A stretch of DNA of 64,000 bases. Source: Leptolyngbyaceae cyanobacterium. GTDB lineage: Bacteria > Cyanobacteriota > Cyanobacteriia > Phormidesmidales > Phormidesmidaceae. The notes beneath the pieces were generated by a model. The model searched no databases. It saw only the letters and a list, made by a program, of their open reading frames with translations, and was not told the origin of the DNA. Shown here piece after piece: positions 43,003-49,022 of the stretch (positions within the stretch are counted from its first letter, which is position 1; the number at the start of each line of letters is the position of its first letter). The DNA lies in NCBI GenBank assembly GCA_965263355.1, contig CBDHHL010000032.1, forward strand, positions 1,280,001 to 1,344,000. The letters are read 5' to 3'. The translations under genes were made by a program, and so were the position numbers.

Positions 43003-43437
43003 ATGGACTTGCCATCTTTTATATGGTTATGGCGGATTGCGGCTTGGTCCATGGGACTGTCGCTGACGGTTTATGTAGGGTTGTTGCTGACCGGTAGCGG
43101 CATTTGGTACACACGTTCTAATCAAAAGCCTCAGCCAACCTGGCTGAGGCTTTTGCATATTGTGTTAGGCGGTGTGTTGGTTGCTTTGGTATTACTGCTT
43201 TTAAGTATTGGTATTATTGGCACCCTGGGGGAACATGGCAGTTTAGGCCATTCCTGGCATTTGGGGGCCGGTTTACTCGTCGTTAGTTTAGTGCTGGCAT
43301 CGACGGCGGCAGCATCTCAGATTTGGAGGGGGGATTGGGTGCGATCGCTCCACGTTGCGATCAATGCACTGCTCTTTTTTGCCTTCGCAGCCGTCAGCTA
43401 CAGCGGCTGGACCGTCGTACAGCAATATTTGCCTTAG
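43003..43437 (+). CDS. DUF4079 membrane protein
   Basis: MDLPSF.WLW.IAAWSMG, GSLGHS.H and GW.VVQ.YLP. Confidence 0.8.
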   Translation: MDLPSFIWLWRIAAWSMGLSLTVYVGLLLTGSGIWYTRSNQKPQPTWLRLLHIVLGGVLVALVLLLLSIGIIGTLGEHGSLGHSWHLGAGLLVVSLVLASTAAASQIWRGDWVRSLHVAINALLFFAFAAVSYSGWTVVQQYLP

Positions 43438-43875
43438 AAATGAAACTTTACGCAATAAACAGTTGCATTTCTAAATTTCCATTATATTAAGGCAGATGAA
43501 TAGCGAGTGAATTGATTATACAAAACACACCTAAATTTGTTATTCTAGAGAATGCGCTTACGGGCTGACTAGAGCTGAATTAGTTCTTAGTTCATAAATG
43601 CTAGAACATGCTTACTAATTATACCAATATTCTGAGTCAAGGAAATTGATTCGGAATTTTTATTTTTCTCTGGGTATCTCCTTAGTGAAGGTACTCAATA
43701 CTTTTCACGGATATTTCTCCACCTGAGTATGTGATATGTTTCAAGCCTTATTAATTGAAGGTTAAGAGTTTTAGCTTATTTTAAGCCTGAGTTAAATTGC
43801 TCAGCTCTTGTGGTTATTATTCGGTTAATTTTACGTGGGCATTTTTTAAGGCTAAGGGAGTTTGCATTAGTAGAC

Positions 43876-44547
43876 ATGGCGCATAAAAAGGGTACCGGTA
43901 GTACTAGAAATGGTCGAGACTCTAATGCCAAACGTCTGGGCGTAAAACGATACGGTGGCGAGCGTGTAAGTGCTGGCAGTATTTTAGTGCGCCAAAGGGG
44001 TACCAAAATACTGCCAGGAAATAATGTTAAGCGGGGCGGGGATGATACCCTTTTTGCCTTGATCGAAGGGATCGTAACGTTTGAGCGCAAAGGTAAATCA
44101 CGTAAGAAAATAAGCGTTTACCCACATTTTCTCAACTTGGATGAAAGAGACGCAATAATGGACGGCAAATTTACTCAAGTACATGAAAGTCAGGATAAGT
44201 TTACCGATTCATATGTTAATAAATTTAATGAATCTGCTATAGTCCAAACGGCTCATACAACAGGTACTACAACTAAGCAAGAATCATTGTCTAAGTCTGT
44301 GGCACGTCGATTTAAACAGGTCTCAAGAGAGCCTCTAAACAAAAAGAACCCTCAGGGAGAAATGACATTAAAGGCTATTGAGAAAGAGTTGGCCAAACTC
44401 TTAGGTTCAGAAGAAAAAGCAAAAGCTTGGCTCAATAAGCCTCATCGTGAACTTAGCAACAAAACACCTGCAAGAATGATTCAAGCTGGCCATAGTAATG
44501 TAGTTTTTCAACTAATTTTATCAATTGCAAGTGGGATTCCAAGCTAG
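43876..44547 (+). CDS. Ribosomal protein bL27 fused to an Xre/MbcA/ParS-type antitoxin (DUF2384-like) C-terminal domain
   Basis: Residues 1-83 ([16 protein letters not shown]...RQRGT...DDTLFAL...SVYP) are bL27. The C-terminal [27 protein letters not shown]...V..L is the antitoxin toxin-binding motif. AGGGAG lies upstream of the ATG. Confidence 0.85.
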
Positions 44548-44883
44548 CCTGGCTTTAAGTATAGTTTGTCAAATTATTACAACTACATACTATTCTAAAC
44601 ACCTCATTACATCACTATGTGGTTGTATAGACGTCCCTATTTACTTTTGAAATGGTTTAATATACCCTGATGAAAAACATTAAAAGTATCGGTATATACA
44701 CAGTGTTTAGGTTTGTACGGAGACATAAGCGAAAGCATGCATGATTTATGTGCAAAACATACATAGCTCAAGTGTGATTTGCAGCACATTACAGTAATAC
44801 TTGATGTCACGATATTTATTTGTGCCTTCAAGTAAGGTCAGTTATGTCGACGGAAAGTAGGTTCTCTGCGTGGAGTTTTGTAG

Positions 44884-45528
44884 TTGCTAATGCAAGGTCG
44901 GGGTTGGCGTCTTATCTTAGAAAGTCGTTTCACTATCGAACAAATTATCAATGGTTTGGATGCACTTGAACATGCAGGTAGATACAATCCGCCACCTGAA
45001 ATGGTTGGTAAAGAAAATGCTTTTAGGGTGGTTTACCTCTCAGGTAGTGCTAGAACTGCTCATCAAGAGATACGAGGTCGTGCAGGCGCAGACATTAGAA
45101 ATCATACACTTATTGAATTTGAATACGTGCTACAGGATAATGCATGGATTGACCTAACGGATGAAGCTATTCAACGTGAGTTTGGCGTAACAATCAGCGA
45201 GCTTTACGAAAACTGGCGTTTTCTCAATGCTCAAAATCAACTTTCTACAACCCAAAGGATTGGCATAAGTGCCTATGCGAATGGTCAGATTGAGGCCATC
45301 AAGGTACCTTCAGTTCGAGATGATGGAGGCTTCAACTGGGTGATTTTTCCAGACAGGTTTCATCCAAACAGTTACATTAACTTTACACCTTCTCAAAAAG
45401 TAAGCATCAGTCAGAACATAGACTTTGATGAGGTTAGCTCTGATATGGATGTTGAAGATGAACAAAATAATTCATTAAGCGAACAAAGAGCCATAGCCGA
45501 AGAACTCATGGGCGACTCTAAATTTTAA
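44884..45528 (+). CDS. RES-domain toxin (NAD+ phosphorylase / ART-like)
   Basis: WRL...GRYN...VYLS...A..E...IDLT...TQRIG..AY...IEAIKVPSVR...NWVIF. Start codon uncertain. Confidence 0.8.
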   Translation: MLMQGRGWRLILESRFTIEQIINGLDALEHAGRYNPPPEMVGKENAFRVVYLSGSARTAHQEIRGRAGADIRNHTLIEFEYVLQDNAWIDLTDEAIQREFGVTISELYENWRFLNAQNQLSTTQRIGISAYANGQIEAIKVPSVRDDGGFNWVIFPDRFHPNSYINFTPSQKVSISQNIDFDEVSSDMDVEDEQNNSLSEQRAIAEELMGDSKF

Positions 45529-45594
45529 TCAAAAATTCAATTACAATTGAACTCCTTTTAATAGCCTGAATTTGTAAATTTCAGAAAGCTACGC

Positions 45595-47652
45595 TCACAC
45601 AACTATTCTTGTCTTCTGAATTCTTATATATCTCAGACTTACTTGAGCAATTCGATTTTCTGGAAAAAACTGGATTAGCTCTTCTAAACTTTTTTGTGCT
45701 TTTGAGAGATAGTATGAAATGTGTTGTCTCGATAACGCTTCTCGATAAAACATCTTGGAACTATTGCTGTCATTAATTACAATATGATAGAGCGCTAGAT
45801 GTAAGATATTATCTATGTTGTTTGGATTTCGCTCATAAAACAACTGAGCCATGCGTATAGCTTTATAGATATCCCTTTCTGCACTCTCTTCATTACCTGT
45901 TACTCGATGTATGATAGAACGCCAATATAGGGTCCAGTTTGAAGAAGGGCTTAATTCCAGAGCGTGTTTAAAATCAGTCATCGCCTGCCCATATTTTCCA
46001 ATTAGGCCATATACCTCTCCACGTCTTCGAATCGCCCAACGGTAGTCGGGCTTTAACTTGATAGCCTGATTGAAGTCACCTAACGCTTTCTTATAGTCCT
46101 GTCTAAACCGATAAAGCTGTCCTCTTTGCGCAATAGCCCATACATAAGCAGGATCTATTACTATGGCACGGTTGAAATCTTGTAGAGCCTCTTCATACCT
46201 TTCGATTTCCCGATAAAAACGTCCTCTTGCTGCAACTGACCAAGCGTAGCTTGAATTAAGTTCAATAGAATGATTAAAATCTTCTAAAGCTTCTTCATAT
46301 TTATAAATTTGACGTAGTTGCCAACCTCTTTTCGCTAATGCTTTGAAATGATTCGGAGTTAGCTTCAAAACCTGACTATAACTCTTAATTGCCTCATCAT
46401 GGCGTTTTAATTCAGACAGAACTTTACCAAGGTTGTACCAAGCCGTAGGATCATTGGGCTCAATTTTAGCTGCTCTTTCATAGAGGTAAATAGCTTCCTG
46501 TTTCCGACTTAAGCTATCAGCAATGAGTCCTTGAAGCGTCCAAATTCTAATGTCATCAGGTTTCAACTGCAGCGCTCTATCACCACTAACTATAGCTTCT
46601 TCGTAGCGTCCTAATAGAAAAAAAGCAATAGCCTTATTGTGCCAAAAATCACTTATATCTGAATTTAAGCTAATTGCCTTATCGTAGCTTTCTACAGCCT
46701 CTTCATAGCGACCTAGTTTAGTAAGTGCAATACCTCGATTATAAAAAGCTGTTGTATAGCTTGGATTTAGTTTAATAGCTTGATTAAAACTTTCTATGGC
46801 TGCATCTGCTAACTTACTTTTTGCAGATGTGGTAGTCTCAATAGACTCAATATTAGTAAGTATTAGACCTTTGCTATTCCAAGCAGTTTCGTTGCTAGGA
46901 TCAACCTCTAAAATATGCTCAAAACAGCTAAGAGAGGCTTTGTAGTCTTTCAATAAATATAAAATCTCTCCTTTCTGCAAACATAGATCTATTGTCCTTG
47001 AATCATTTGATTCTGTTTTAGCTAATAACTCTTGAACTTGTGATAGCCTCTGAATTAGATCATTTGGCGTTAAGTGATCGTATTTCCTAAGTCCCTCTCT
47101 CTGAGCTGGTTGCTTAGATTTTTGTGCTGTTTCCTTAGGCCCAACTGCTAAATCAAATACGCCCGAACTCCAATCGAAAAAATCTGGTGCACGCCGCATA
47201 AAATATTTGACTGCAAACCCTGGCAAAAAGAAAACAAAACAAGCATGACTGAAGTGCTCACGAAATCTTTCTCGCTGTTGATTTAGATGACTAAGGATTT
47301 GAGGAACTGAGTTTAGATTATAGTAGCTGCCTTCACCCCCATAACCAGGTTTAATGTCAGCTTCTAAAGACTTTTCTAAACCTTGAATCAAGAAAATATC
47401 AACTTGATTTCGATTATCATGATTTGCGACTAAATCATAAAGGTTCTCAATAGGGGCAGTTAGTCCTAAAGTGCCAATTTTTTTCTGAGATAAGTCATCT
47501 TTAATCTGAGGAATTAAATCAAAAGCTTCTGTTGGAGAACATTCTACAAAAACAATGCCAAACCCTTTGCGTCTCCTCAGGGAACGGATTAAAGCTCTAT
47601 ATACTTCTTCTTTGGTCAGAAAAAGACTTCCAGTGTCCTTTGTCACTGTCAT
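45595..47652 (-). CDS. Tetratricopeptide-repeat protein with an N-terminal degenerate ATPase-like region
   Basis: More than 10 TPR units (AWYNLG..L..L.R..EA...Y); LNQQRERF and APDFFDW motifs. Confidence 0.88.
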   Translation of the reverse strand: MTVTKDTGSLFLTKEEVYRALIRSLRRRKGFGIVFVECSPTEAFDLIPQIKDDLSQKKIGTLGLTAPIENLYDLVANHDNRNQVDIFLIQGLEKSLEADIKPGYGGEGSYYNLNSVPQILSHLNQQRERFREHFSHACFVFFLPGFAVKYFMRRAPDFFDWSSGVFDLAVGPKETAQKSKQPAQREGLRKYDHLTPNDLIQRLSQVQELLAKTESNDSRTIDLCLQKGEILYLLKDYKASLSCFEHILEVDPSNETAWNSKGLILTNIESIETTTSAKSKLADAAIESFNQAIKLNPSYTTAFYNRGIALTKLGRYEEAVESYDKAISLNSDISDFWHNKAIAFFLLGRYEEAIVSGDRALQLKPDDIRIWTLQGLIADSLSRKQEAIYLYERAAKIEPNDPTAWYNLGKVLSELKRHDEAIKSYSQVLKLTPNHFKALAKRGWQLRQIYKYEEALEDFNHSIELNSSYAWSVAARGRFYREIERYEEALQDFNRAIVIDPAYVWAIAQRGQLYRFRQDYKKALGDFNQAIKLKPDYRWAIRRRGEVYGLIGKYGQAMTDFKHALELSPSSNWTLYWRSIIHRVTGNEESAERDIYKAIRMAQLFYERNPNNIDNILHLALYHIVINDSNSSKMFYREALSRQHISYYLSKAQKSLEELIQFFPENRIAQVSLRYIRIQKTRIVV

Positions 47653-47654
47653 GG

Positions 47655-49022
47655 TTAGTTTATTCTAGAGAGAGCTTCTTGAAACTGCCTGATGCCTTCT
47701 ACCAGTGGATGAACGTTACACCAGGTTTGTAAAGCCTCATTTTCATCGTAATAACGATATTCCAATAGGCAACGATTTAACAGGAGTCGTAAATGAGCTT
47801 CATCTCGCTTGATTTGTCTATGGTGATAGACATTTGCCAATAAATCCCACTGATCTTCTTGAATTTGACGACGGTAAGTTTGCCGCGCTTCTTCAACAGC
47901 TCGATTGACAGCTTGAGCAGTAATGGGTAACTCCTCTGTCCAATCAATTGCTTTTTGAATCAGCTGCATCAGATTTCTGACATGCCCTCCACTCATCAGG
48001 CAAAGCTTATCTAACGTTTCTGAATTATCAAAAACTGGAGGAATCTCTAATCCTTCTACAGAACCCACTAAAGTTTGGGTAAGTCTAGAGTCAATTATTT
48101 GAATACGTCGTGAAATCAGTTCCTTGAGTTTATTCAGGCCTTGCTGATTAGCACTATTGTCAAAGTTCCGAACCATAACCATAGGTAATACATCAGGCGT
48201 ATCATAGTTGTCCTCTAATCGAGTTGCCCGACCGGAATAGACCATTGTAATGGGGACAGTATAGATAACATGGCATTCCAATCCCTTAAGCATTTCACTC
48301 CGATTCAGATAGATTTCATCGTAATTACTGGGTTTCCCTTCTTCTTTTGTTTCGACAATTCGGTCTAAATTATCGACAATAATTACTAAACCTTGATTTT
48401 TCTCAGGGGGTAATACCTCCCGAGCTTGAATAATAAAGTCGTTAAGAGCATTTATTAAAGAGGGAGTATGGTTATTGATCCTTTTGCGTAGCTCGCGACG
48501 TTTATCTGGGACTGCTTTCAGATTTGCCATGATTTTTGCAAATTGAGAAACCTGAGCTTCCAAGCTTAACCCTTCAAACTCCACTTCCGTTAAGGCTAGA
48601 TCTCTAAGGGATACCCAACGTTGTTCAAGCCACTGAAGCAAAGGATTGTGATTTATTAGCTTAATTTCCTCAACTAAATGACGGGTACAAGCAAACAGAA
48701 TTTCTGCATAATCTGTATCTTGAGGTTCGATATCCAGCTCATCAGCGGCAAAGTAAACAACGAAATATTTATTTTTTTCCAAATACTCTTTGAGTCTTGA
48801 AAGTTCTGTGGATTTGCCAACACCTCGGTGTCCCGTGTAAAGCTGACAGGTTGGTTTTCTCGAACGAGTAATCTTACGTCCCAGCTCTCGAATAACATCC
48901 CATTTGCCACGAACTTCCTGACAGTCTACGTAAGCTTCCTTCGACGGTGGTTGAAAAGGTTCGAATGAGCTGTAGATCTCTATCAATAATTCTTCTGACT
49001 TCAAATTCAAGGGAAACCTCAC
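47655..49022 (-). CDS. P-loop AAA ATPase
   Basis: GHRGVGKSTEL Walker A, IIVDNLDR Walker B, SGGHVR and VHPLV. Confidence 0.88.
   Translation of the reverse strand: MRFPLNLKSEELLIEIYSSFEPFQPPSKEAYVDCQEVRGKWDVIRELGRKITRSRKPTCQLYTGHRGVGKSTELSRLKEYLEKNKYFVVYFAADELDIEPQDTDYAEILFACTRHLVEEIKLINHNPLLQWLEQRWVSLRDLALTEVEFEGLSLEAQVSQFAKIMANLKAVPDKRRELRKRINNHTPSLINALNDFIIQAREVLPPEKNQGLVIIVDNLDRIVETKEEGKPSNYDEIYLNRSEMLKGLECHVIYTVPITMVYSGRATRLEDNYDTPDVLPMVMVRNFDNSANQQGLNKLKELISRRIQIIDSRLTQTLVGSVEGLEIPPVFDNSETLDKLCLMSGGHVRNLMQLIQKAIDWTEELPITAQAVNRAVEEARQTYRRQIQEDQWDLLANVYHHRQIKRDEAHLRLLLNRCLLEYRYYDENEALQTWCNVHPLVEGIRQFQEALSRIN

Follow-up and report, generated by a model that had tools for sequence, protein, structure and literature searches.

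The 64,000-nucleotide stretch analyzed here (the window; positions 1,280,001 to 1,344,000 of contig CBDHHL010000032.1) comes from a marine cyanobacterium of the Leptolyngbyaceae and carries a gene in which a complete ribosomal protein bL27 is fused in frame, through a linker, to an antitoxin domain of the Xre/MbcA/ParS type. A gene for a RES-domain protein follows on the same strand. In known type II antitoxins, the toxin-binding domain is paired with a DNA-binding domain, and the two genes are a real new variant of RES-Xre toxin–antitoxin systems. That they form a toxin–antitoxin core, in which the RES enzyme is held in check by the C-terminal domain of the protein encoded ahead of it, appears highly probable. 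Our preferred reading goes further, to a RES-Xre-family type II toxin–antitoxin module with a rebuilt antitoxin whose bL27 part would be docked on the ribosome; we put its probability at roughly 0.45.

The fusion gene (43876..44547, plus strand) is an open frame of 223 codons that starts with ATG at 43876 and ends with a stop codon at 44545–44547. Its assignment relies on the open frame, Pfam matches and orthologous fusions at locus L001 (5719..6387) and in protein clusters P0002 and P0004 (P, L and G labels denote protein clusters, loci and genomes of this analysis). As the original prediction had stated, the protein begins with a near-complete bL27. Pfam Ribosomal_L27 (PF01016) matches residues 2–81, covering profile positions 1–79 of 79 (E = 1.8e-35), and NCBIfam TIGR00062 gives 124.5 bits (cut-off 90.35). 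The bL27 domain comprises residues 1–83 (43876..44124, plus strand), with a ratio of nonsynonymous to synonymous change (dN/dS) of 0.021 and a GC content of 0.47. An alternative GTG start at 43810, 66 bp 5′ of the ATG, would lengthen the frame. We prefer the ATG because the orthologue in Leptothoe spongobia TAU-MAC 1115 begins at the corresponding ATG, and because the norm for bL27 is a free N-terminal AHKK tail.

The antitoxin domain comprises residues 138–223 (44287..44544, plus strand) and is defined by PF09722, NCBIfam NF049845, sequence alignments and the complex model described below. It consists of a remnant of the helix-turn-helix (HTH) region followed by the toxin-binding domain with its C-terminal plug. 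The DUF2384-like toxin-binding motif that had been noticed behind the linker corresponds to Pfam Xre_MbcA_ParS_C (PF09722), which matches residues 172–203 with 29.6 bits (cut-off 24.5). At the sequence level, residues 141–221 align to residues 36–113 of the 115-residue MbcA (E = 0.0038), and the antitoxin part also aligns to residues 99–146 of the 149-residue Pseudomonas putida Xre (E = 0.005). The aligned stretch of MbcA includes what we take to be the C-terminal part of the HTH region. No HTH family was matched in the Pfam scan of the fusion protein, whose N-terminus is occupied by bL27. By these alignments, the toxin-binding half is intact, and part of the HTH region survives as a remnant around SVARR. 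The proposal that the HTH had been replaced by a ribosomal protein is therefore right as to the bL27 at the N-terminus, but the HTH is truncated rather than absent, its remnant being retained in the regions aligned to MbcA 36–113 and to NF049845 27–110.

The RES gene (44884..45528, plus strand) encodes 214 amino acids, including an acidic C-terminal tail, and lies 336 bp downstream of the fusion gene on the same strand, in agreement with the roughly 340 bp estimated earlier. Its identification is based on Pfam RES (E = 2.4e-13, 50.8 bits, cut-off 23.2), conserved residues and fold matches; all three domain families named in the original prediction (Ribosomal_L27, Xre/MbcA/ParS_C and RES) thus score above their Pfam cut-offs. 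When 40 RES proteins are aligned, the window protein proves to keep all invariant residues (R9, R33, Y51, E62, W111 and Q124) as well as the nearly invariant S143, N151 and F155, with R33, E62 and S143 forming the triad. The protein and its nearest relatives do not have the N-terminal extension of about 20 residues found in most relatives. At its other end the window protein adds the acidic tail of about 50 residues (about 166–214; 45380–45528), which ends in a predicted helix. L. spongobia has a conserved, longer form of this tail, and most relatives have none. The tail could interact with the basic L27 part. The dN/dS of the RES gene between the window and L. spongobia is 0.21. A PDB search by sequence with the RES frame returned noise only. 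By structure, the AlphaFold2 model (mean predicted local distance difference test score, pLDDT, 86.3) matched 12 PDB chains at E <= 0.001, and all 12 are RES toxins from solved toxin–antitoxin complexes, among them MbcT (6fkg), ParT (6d0i/6d0h), P. putida RES (6gw6/9r35), NatT (8qnl) and VPA0770 (8gug). The RES fold, the absence of which would have spoken against a toxin–antitoxin pair, is thus shown. RES toxins have an ADP-ribosyltransferase-like fold, and members of the family degrade NAD+ or ADP-ribosylate a target. By analogy, the window protein would be toxic and share such NAD+ chemistry.

We also modeled the complex between the two proteins, as the original prediction had suggested. The model of RES residues 1–172 with fusion residues 130–223 obtained an interface score (ipSAE) of 0.81 (0.81, 0.77 and 0.83 in separate runs), against 0.25 for the best control; since solved complexes of the like kind exist, this score may partly reflect likeness and is no proof of binding. 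Of 157 solved complexes 116 attain the ipSAE mark, and of 215 mismatched pairs 2 do. The partners have pLDDT values of at least 78, with contact agreement of at least 87%. In the model, the antitoxin contacts R9, R33, Y51, E62 and N151 of RES through its nine final residues (215–223). Binding between toxin and antitoxin is thus predicted, and the antitoxin C-terminus would sit in the RES active site.

The fusion is no artefact. A contig from a public run, probably the source of the assembly, spans 43700–45700 with 0 differences, and another sample from that study has contigs over 44091–44900 and 44091–45700 that cross the L27/linker junction, again with 0 differences. The interval 44124–44160, where a stop or frameshift might have been hidden, is therefore bridged identically in two samples. 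In variant contigs, which stem from two studies, a +1 insertion at 44313 is compensated by a -1 deletion at 44325, at the start of the antitoxin domain, so that the frame is restored; P0001 and P0002 differ locally in the same way. The closest relative of the fusion is the L. spongobia protein of 222 amino acids (85% identical). Its gene stands in the same order as in the window, with DUF1830, DUF4079, fusion, RES and tetratricopeptide repeat (TPR) genes. Two further fusions come from other assemblies: P0002 (223 amino acids, 79% identity) and P0004 (225 amino acids, 51% identity), the latter with both the Pfam L27 match and PF09722 at 43.5 bits. A survey for bL27–antitoxin fusions beyond the window thus returned three, of which that of L. 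spongobia stands beside a RES gene. In all, the fusion is in frame in four lineages, and the downstream RES gene was seen in the window and in L. spongobia. The longest contigs of P0004 and of the RES relative P0123 differ in length (36161 and 10894 bases) and show no pairing of the two.

The architecture is rare. An L27 family search over 401 sampled genomes of the phylum gave a match in 397 and two matches in 3. The extra copies in two of these three (G113 and G125) proved to be one gene split across contig ends in each case, so that L. spongobia is the only one left. A search of 60 relatives with the entire fusion gave an L27 match in 59, and the full-length form was found solely in L. spongobia. 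RES relatives of the window's subfamily (E <= 1e-6) were detected in 2 of the 401 genomes. The second genome, G365 (L078 756..1956), encodes a 199-amino-acid antitoxin with the same kind of C-terminus, overlapping its toxin gene by 23 bp. The N-terminal region of this antitoxin differs and is, by eye, not HTH-like, so that swapping of N-terminal regions may be common in this group of RES pairs. In the full-text literature, whose coverage leaves out most subscription journals, we found no description of a bL27–antitoxin/RES architecture, in line with the earlier statement that no described toxin–antitoxin system of this kind was known to its author. In a review on what bacterial ribosomal proteins do outside the ribosome, bL27 figures, in the portion consulted, only for antimicrobial activity (PMC10931766).

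The bL27 part is conserved as strictly as the housekeeping protein. Between the window and L. spongobia its dN/dS is 0.021 (proportions of nonsynonymous and synonymous differences, pN and pS, 0.034 and 0.67), which indicates very strong purifying selection on the coding sequence and contradicts neutral evolution of this part, a possibility raised in the original prediction. At 41 positions that are invariant among 33 housekeeping cyanobacterial L27s, a single change (G52K) is present in the three Leptothoe-type fusions and none in P0004. The AHKK and RQRGT motifs are intact, as had been noted, and both departures noted with them are real: ILPG stands where 32 of the 33 housekeeping proteins have xHPG, and NVKRG replaces their NVGRG. 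Overall, fused L27 is 75–86% identical to the housekeeping L27 of relatives.

The fused gene was also correctly proposed to be an extra copy rather than the housekeeping rpmA. In the sister genome of L. spongobia there are two L27 matches, namely the fusion and a frame of 87 codons that, at a distance of about 120 bp, forms a separate rplU-rpmA pair with the sole L21 match. Upstream of the fusion in the window, Pfam identifies DUF4079 and DUF1830 genes instead of the rplU that would mark the rpmA position, and its absence there is as predicted. No second L27 motif was found within the window, and a short contig in the probable source run carries another L27 gene (VKKYGGQSVTA) of the housekeeping type of the clade, a hint at a separate rpmA in the window organism too. 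A tree built from 52 L27 domains groups the host rpmA with housekeeping sequences in a clade of 14 (support 100/92), with the fused copies outside it, and the three Leptothoe-type fused copies form a clade of their own (97/93); the tree is built on 82 columns and most of its other forks are unresolved. Because it falls outside the clade of the host's rpmA, the fused L27 is no stray duplicate of recent date. Exchange with that rpmA by recent gene conversion was rejected as a cause of the conservation, since the fused L27 of L. spongobia has a DNA identity of 0.73 to its own rpmA and 0.81 to the fused copy of the window. In the comparison of the window with L001 5719–6387, the L27 part has a pS of 0.67, roughly double that of the linker and antitoxin parts (0.27–0.32), and this step coincides with a break in GC content. 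The two halves could have had different histories, or the downstream part could be under nucleotide-level constraint.

The linker (residues 84–137; 44125..44286, plus strand) was delimited as variable from dN/dS, alignment and pLDDT. The dN/dS is 0.39 for residues 84–160 and 0.17 for residues 161–223 between the window and L. spongobia. Although the linker can hardly be aligned to P0004, the frame is nonetheless preserved. In a poor model of the whole fusion from a 4-sequence alignment (mean pLDDT 43.7), which was not used for placing the L27 part or the linker, linker pLDDT is below 50, and the linker is probably disordered. A search of the ESM Atlas with residues 84–223 gave no usable match. 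Within the linker lies an in-frame ATG (Met95; 44158..44160, plus strand), a possible second start that is present in three of the four fusion proteins and absent from P0004. The suggestion that this codon could give antitoxin alone has a counterpart in public data, where it is the annotated start of the 128-amino-acid product of L. spongobia (P0005; NZ_JADOES010000053.1, L001 6001–6387). The L27 start lies 282 bp upstream in the same open frame, so that the fusion is invisible in this annotation because the annotated start is the internal Met.

Taken together, we propose the following mechanism. The last ~85 residues of the fusion would neutralize the toxin, with the C-terminal tail (SIASGIPS) placed in the active site. 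Where antitoxins usually have the front of their DNA-binding region, there is a complete bL27 paralogue on a flexible linker of about 55 residues. The fused bL27 would still occupy, at least transiently, the place of bL27 on 23S rRNA or on the 50S subunit. We infer such docking because the bL27 part is conserved as tightly as the housekeeping protein, AHKK tail included. Once docked, it would tether the antitoxin and any bound toxin to ribosomes, and the fate of the antitoxin would hinge on ribosome assembly, perhaps with stability confined to the incorporated state and with a copy that fails to be incorporated exposed as an orphan ribosomal protein. If the fusion were lost or degraded, the RES enzyme would be freed and the cell arrested. 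A C-terminal addition to bL27 appears feasible on the ribosome because plastid bL27c carries one, according to the part of its description consulted (PMC5071890). A more general notion is that bL27 serves as a reusable N-terminal module of cyanobacterial conflict systems, fused to a neutralizer or an effector, with an enzyme parked on the bL27 site or gated by it. Such a guard of the peptidyl-transferase region would let the enzyme loose when phage or stress attacks ribosomes or halts their assembly. We consider this broader notion rather unlikely.

Several observations weigh against this mechanism. On the 50S subunit, bL27 is located at the interface side, which might not tolerate some 35 kDa of tethered cargo. 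The His of xHPG is replaced by Leu or Phe in all four fusions and G52K is found in three of four fused L27s, so that these may not be fully equivalent to bL27. Both subfamily models of RES-Xre pairs score well below their cut-offs: NF049845 (RES/Xre antitoxin) aligns residues 138–221 to model positions 27–110 of 112 with 32.9 bits (cut-off 90), and NF049844 (toxin subfamily) gives the RES frame 25 bits (cut-off 110). The 336-bp spacer is unlike the usual coupled arrangement, exemplified by the 23-bp overlap in G365. Finally, the internal ATG could yield an antitoxin free of L27.

Searches seeded with the fusion showed that bL27, in its cyanobacterial type, also stands at the N-terminus of other proteins, with FTP-propeptide, HEAT-repeat or S8 subtilase parts. 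The L27–FTP (Fungalysin/Thermolysin-propeptide) family is the largest of these, with 16 clusters of 326–419 amino acids (among P0009–P0030, P0045, P0073 and P0274); the FTP tail of P0013 is matched by all 15 other clusters at E <= 2.4e-31. The L27–HEAT proteins (P0275–P0277) have 565–639 amino acids, and the L27–S8 subtilases (P0278 and P0279) have 690–705 and start with MASKK instead of MAHKK. One more protein, P0106, joins L27 to a helix-hairpin-helix (HhH) tail. Many L27+Obg and L21+L27(+RNase E/G) matches were listed as well, and these may be read-through of neighboring genes, given what we take to be the gene order there.

Genes of the FTP family were found directly 5′ of genes for M4 thermolysin-like peptidases at L074 (3..1466), where the N-terminus lies off the contig, and at L075 (5830..7527), where the gene is unfused. 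Nowhere was the L27–FTP–M4 arrangement seen whole, and these contexts suggest a two-gene module of an L27-headed propeptide and a protease. Propeptides of the thermolysin type act as chaperone and inhibitor of their protease. Since FTP genes precede M4 genes and the propeptide has this role, L27 would be joined to a presumed neutralizer in two unrelated two-gene modules. A first metagenome scan for the context of L27–FTP genes returned no loci, and a second returned 3, none showing the L27 part. The FTP tail gave 3 weak matches in the 401 genomes of the phylum, the best of which (the sole frame read) has no L27 fusion. No match was found in 51 relatives of G081, and 0 of 78 plasmid records covered at least 80% of P0013. 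In the species-representative genomes searched, no L27–FTP, L27–HEAT or L27–S8 fusion was found.

The spacer between antitoxin and toxin genes (44548..44883, plus strand) is 336 bp long and about 91% identical to that of L. spongobia, being nearly invariant over about 44735–44900; the region 5′ of the fusion gene, unlike the spacer, is poorly conserved. The spacer is also better conserved than the synonymous sites of the flanking coding DNA. A third variant that co-occurs keeps 44771–45125 and has 169 unlike letters in place of 44601–44770. The spacer contains a palindrome (TACTTGA-N23-TCAAGTA, 44798–44834), and a stretch of the antitoxin coding sequence is complementary to the ribosome-binding site of the RES gene. 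Scans for other signals gave background results. Rfam matches over 43400–45700 were at chance level (best E = 0.15, far under the gathering score), and the predicted RNA fold of the spacer was no better than that of shuffled sequences (z = +0.25). Its primary sequence compared with the 23S rRNA of L. spongobia gave at best 22.3 bits (shuffle mean 21.6, maximum 28.2), small open reading frames in the spacer showed no convincing conservation, and counts in a promoter and terminator scan equaled the shuffle level. Our guess is that the spacer probably contains the RES promoter or a leader/5′UTR. The antitoxin-first order and shared strand are those of RES-Xre operons, in which the toxin gene usually overlaps or adjoins the antitoxin gene. 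The pair was correctly recognized as RES-Xre by its domain architecture and its RES protein, but the toxin, set off by the spacer, is neither overlapping nor adjacent.

GC content marks the same region. It is 0.47, the window mean, in the L27 part and drops to 0.37 past the L27/linker boundary; values of 0.35–0.41 extend from the linker through the antitoxin domain, the spacer and the RES gene to the TPR and NTPase genes, with 0.38–0.40 over 44.0–49.0 kb. The DNA had been described as AT-rich, which is correct from the linker through the NTPase gene but not for the L27 part. The TPR protein (45595..47652, minus strand; 685 amino acids; Pfam) is syntenic in L. spongobia, and the AAA_16/KAP-like NTPase (47655..49022, minus strand; 455 amino acids; Pfam) has a weak PADLOC match to PDC-S20. 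The two may constitute a separate defense-like pair. PADLOC has no model that matches the fusion or the RES frame. Because GC drops at the L27/linker joint, the toxin–antitoxin and TPR–NTPase pairs look as if they had been acquired as a single island that begins at that joint.

The strict conservation of the bL27 part would also be expected if bL27 were an integrated decoy or sensor, that is, a mimic whose attack by a phage factor would likewise hit the antitoxin, release RES and lead to abortive infection. Such a decoy has to be a faithful copy. It would fit the heading of other conflict-type modules by bL27 (the FTP family of 16 clusters, S8 and HEAT), including the FTP genes directly 5′ of M4 genes, by which L27 would sit on a presumed neutralizer in two unrelated modules, and it would fit the location of the toxin–antitoxin pair in a low-GC island beside TPR and NTPase genes. 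However, M4 neighbors were seen only for FTP genes whose L27 part is off the contig (L074) or that are unfused (L075), no PADLOC model covers the fusion or the RES frame, and true ribosome binding explains the conservation equally well. Moreover, we know of no phage factor targeting cyanobacterial bL27, though no search aimed at one was made. On balance we regard the decoy as unlikely. Another explanation takes the basic bL27 as a replacement nucleic-acid binder that, in place of the HTH, binds its own mRNA or DNA, for instance in the spacer, and represses the toxin or the operon. Many ribosomal proteins repress their own messages, the front of the HTH region is missing, the spacer is about 91% conserved, above the upstream intergenic region, and the palindrome and the stretch complementary to the RES ribosome-binding site offer candidate targets. 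Yet the spacer has no unusual fold (z = +0.25), no Rfam match and no primary-sequence likeness to 23S rRNA, and generic binding would not require housekeeping-grade conservation of all 83 residues and the N-terminal tail. The same L27 module also occurs on proteins without such a spacer. We consider this explanation clearly unlikely.

The remaining two explanations deny the fusion as such a role. In one, the long frame mainly supplies an extra bL27 whose linker is cut, or translation starts at Met95 as well, so that the L27-free C-terminal part is the antitoxin and the fusion couples expression only. The ATG at 44158 in three of the four proteins, an L. spongobia annotation that is exactly the 128-amino-acid product, and a variable linker predicted to be disordered are all compatible with two products. 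On the other hand, P0004 has no Met at this position, there is no clear Shine-Dalgarno sequence ahead of 44158, and independent products would not need a frame that four lineages preserve through some 140 codons and by compensated indels, which makes this decidedly improbable. The other holds that the fusion is incidental, a toxin–antitoxin island having landed behind a stray rpmA copy with loss of the stop codon. The GC break at the L27/linker boundary (0.47 vs 0.37) and the rarity of the fusion (1 of 401 and 1 of 60 genomes) are what such an accident would leave. It is very unlikely all the same in view of the dN/dS of 0.02 on the L27 part, the frame kept in four lineages and the position of the fused L27 outside the host-rpmA clade (100/92), which is not that of a recent stray duplicate.

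Whichever role bL27 has, an intact ribosomal protein as the partner domain of an antitoxin suggests a direct link between toxin, antitoxin and ribosome, or a ribosomal-protein decoy. The system is compact, with two genes for 223 and 214 amino acids. The occurrence of L27 on protease-linked and repeat proteins points to a wider, undescribed use of bL27 beyond the housekeeping gene. Similar cases may be under-counted, given that annotation from an internal Met hides the fusion.

Among the closest known systems is MbcT–MbcA of Mycobacterium tuberculosis (6fkg), whose toxin is the best fold match of the window RES protein (E = 7.6e-6). In both systems the antitoxin gene comes first and the antitoxin C-terminus is placed in the toxin active site, here in the model. 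In contrast to the 115-residue MbcA, which has an intact N-terminus, the first ~35 residues are replaced here by bL27 and the linker. The window RES protein shares only about 20% identity with MbcT and has an added acidic tail, and the two window genes are 336 bp apart. ParT–ParS (6d0i/6d0h) and the P. putida RES-Xre pair (6gw6; 9r35) likewise share the toxin fold and the C-terminal toxin-binding domain. However, ParS and P. putida Xre are promoter-DNA binders, as far as the title of 9r35 tells, whereas no HTH family was detected in the window fusion. The RES-Xre subfamilies of NCBIfam differ too, as the window proteins score far under their cut-offs. The proteins in which L27 is followed by HhH, FTP, S8 or HEAT parts resemble the fusion in having a conserved N-terminal L27, a linker and an unrelated domain, but this domain is not an antitoxin. 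Compared with housekeeping bL27 (rpmA), the fusion has a full-length L27 domain above the curated cut-offs, but it is a second copy located away from rplU, it does not have the His of xHPG, it carries G52K, and it continues for 140 extra residues ending in the antitoxin domain. In this last respect, spinach chloroplast bL27c provides a precedent: in the part of its description consulted, its C-terminal extension is near an rRNA protrusion and reaches towards the solvent side (PMC5071890), so that an add-on of about 50 residues is evidently compatible with a ribosome of cyanobacterial descent.

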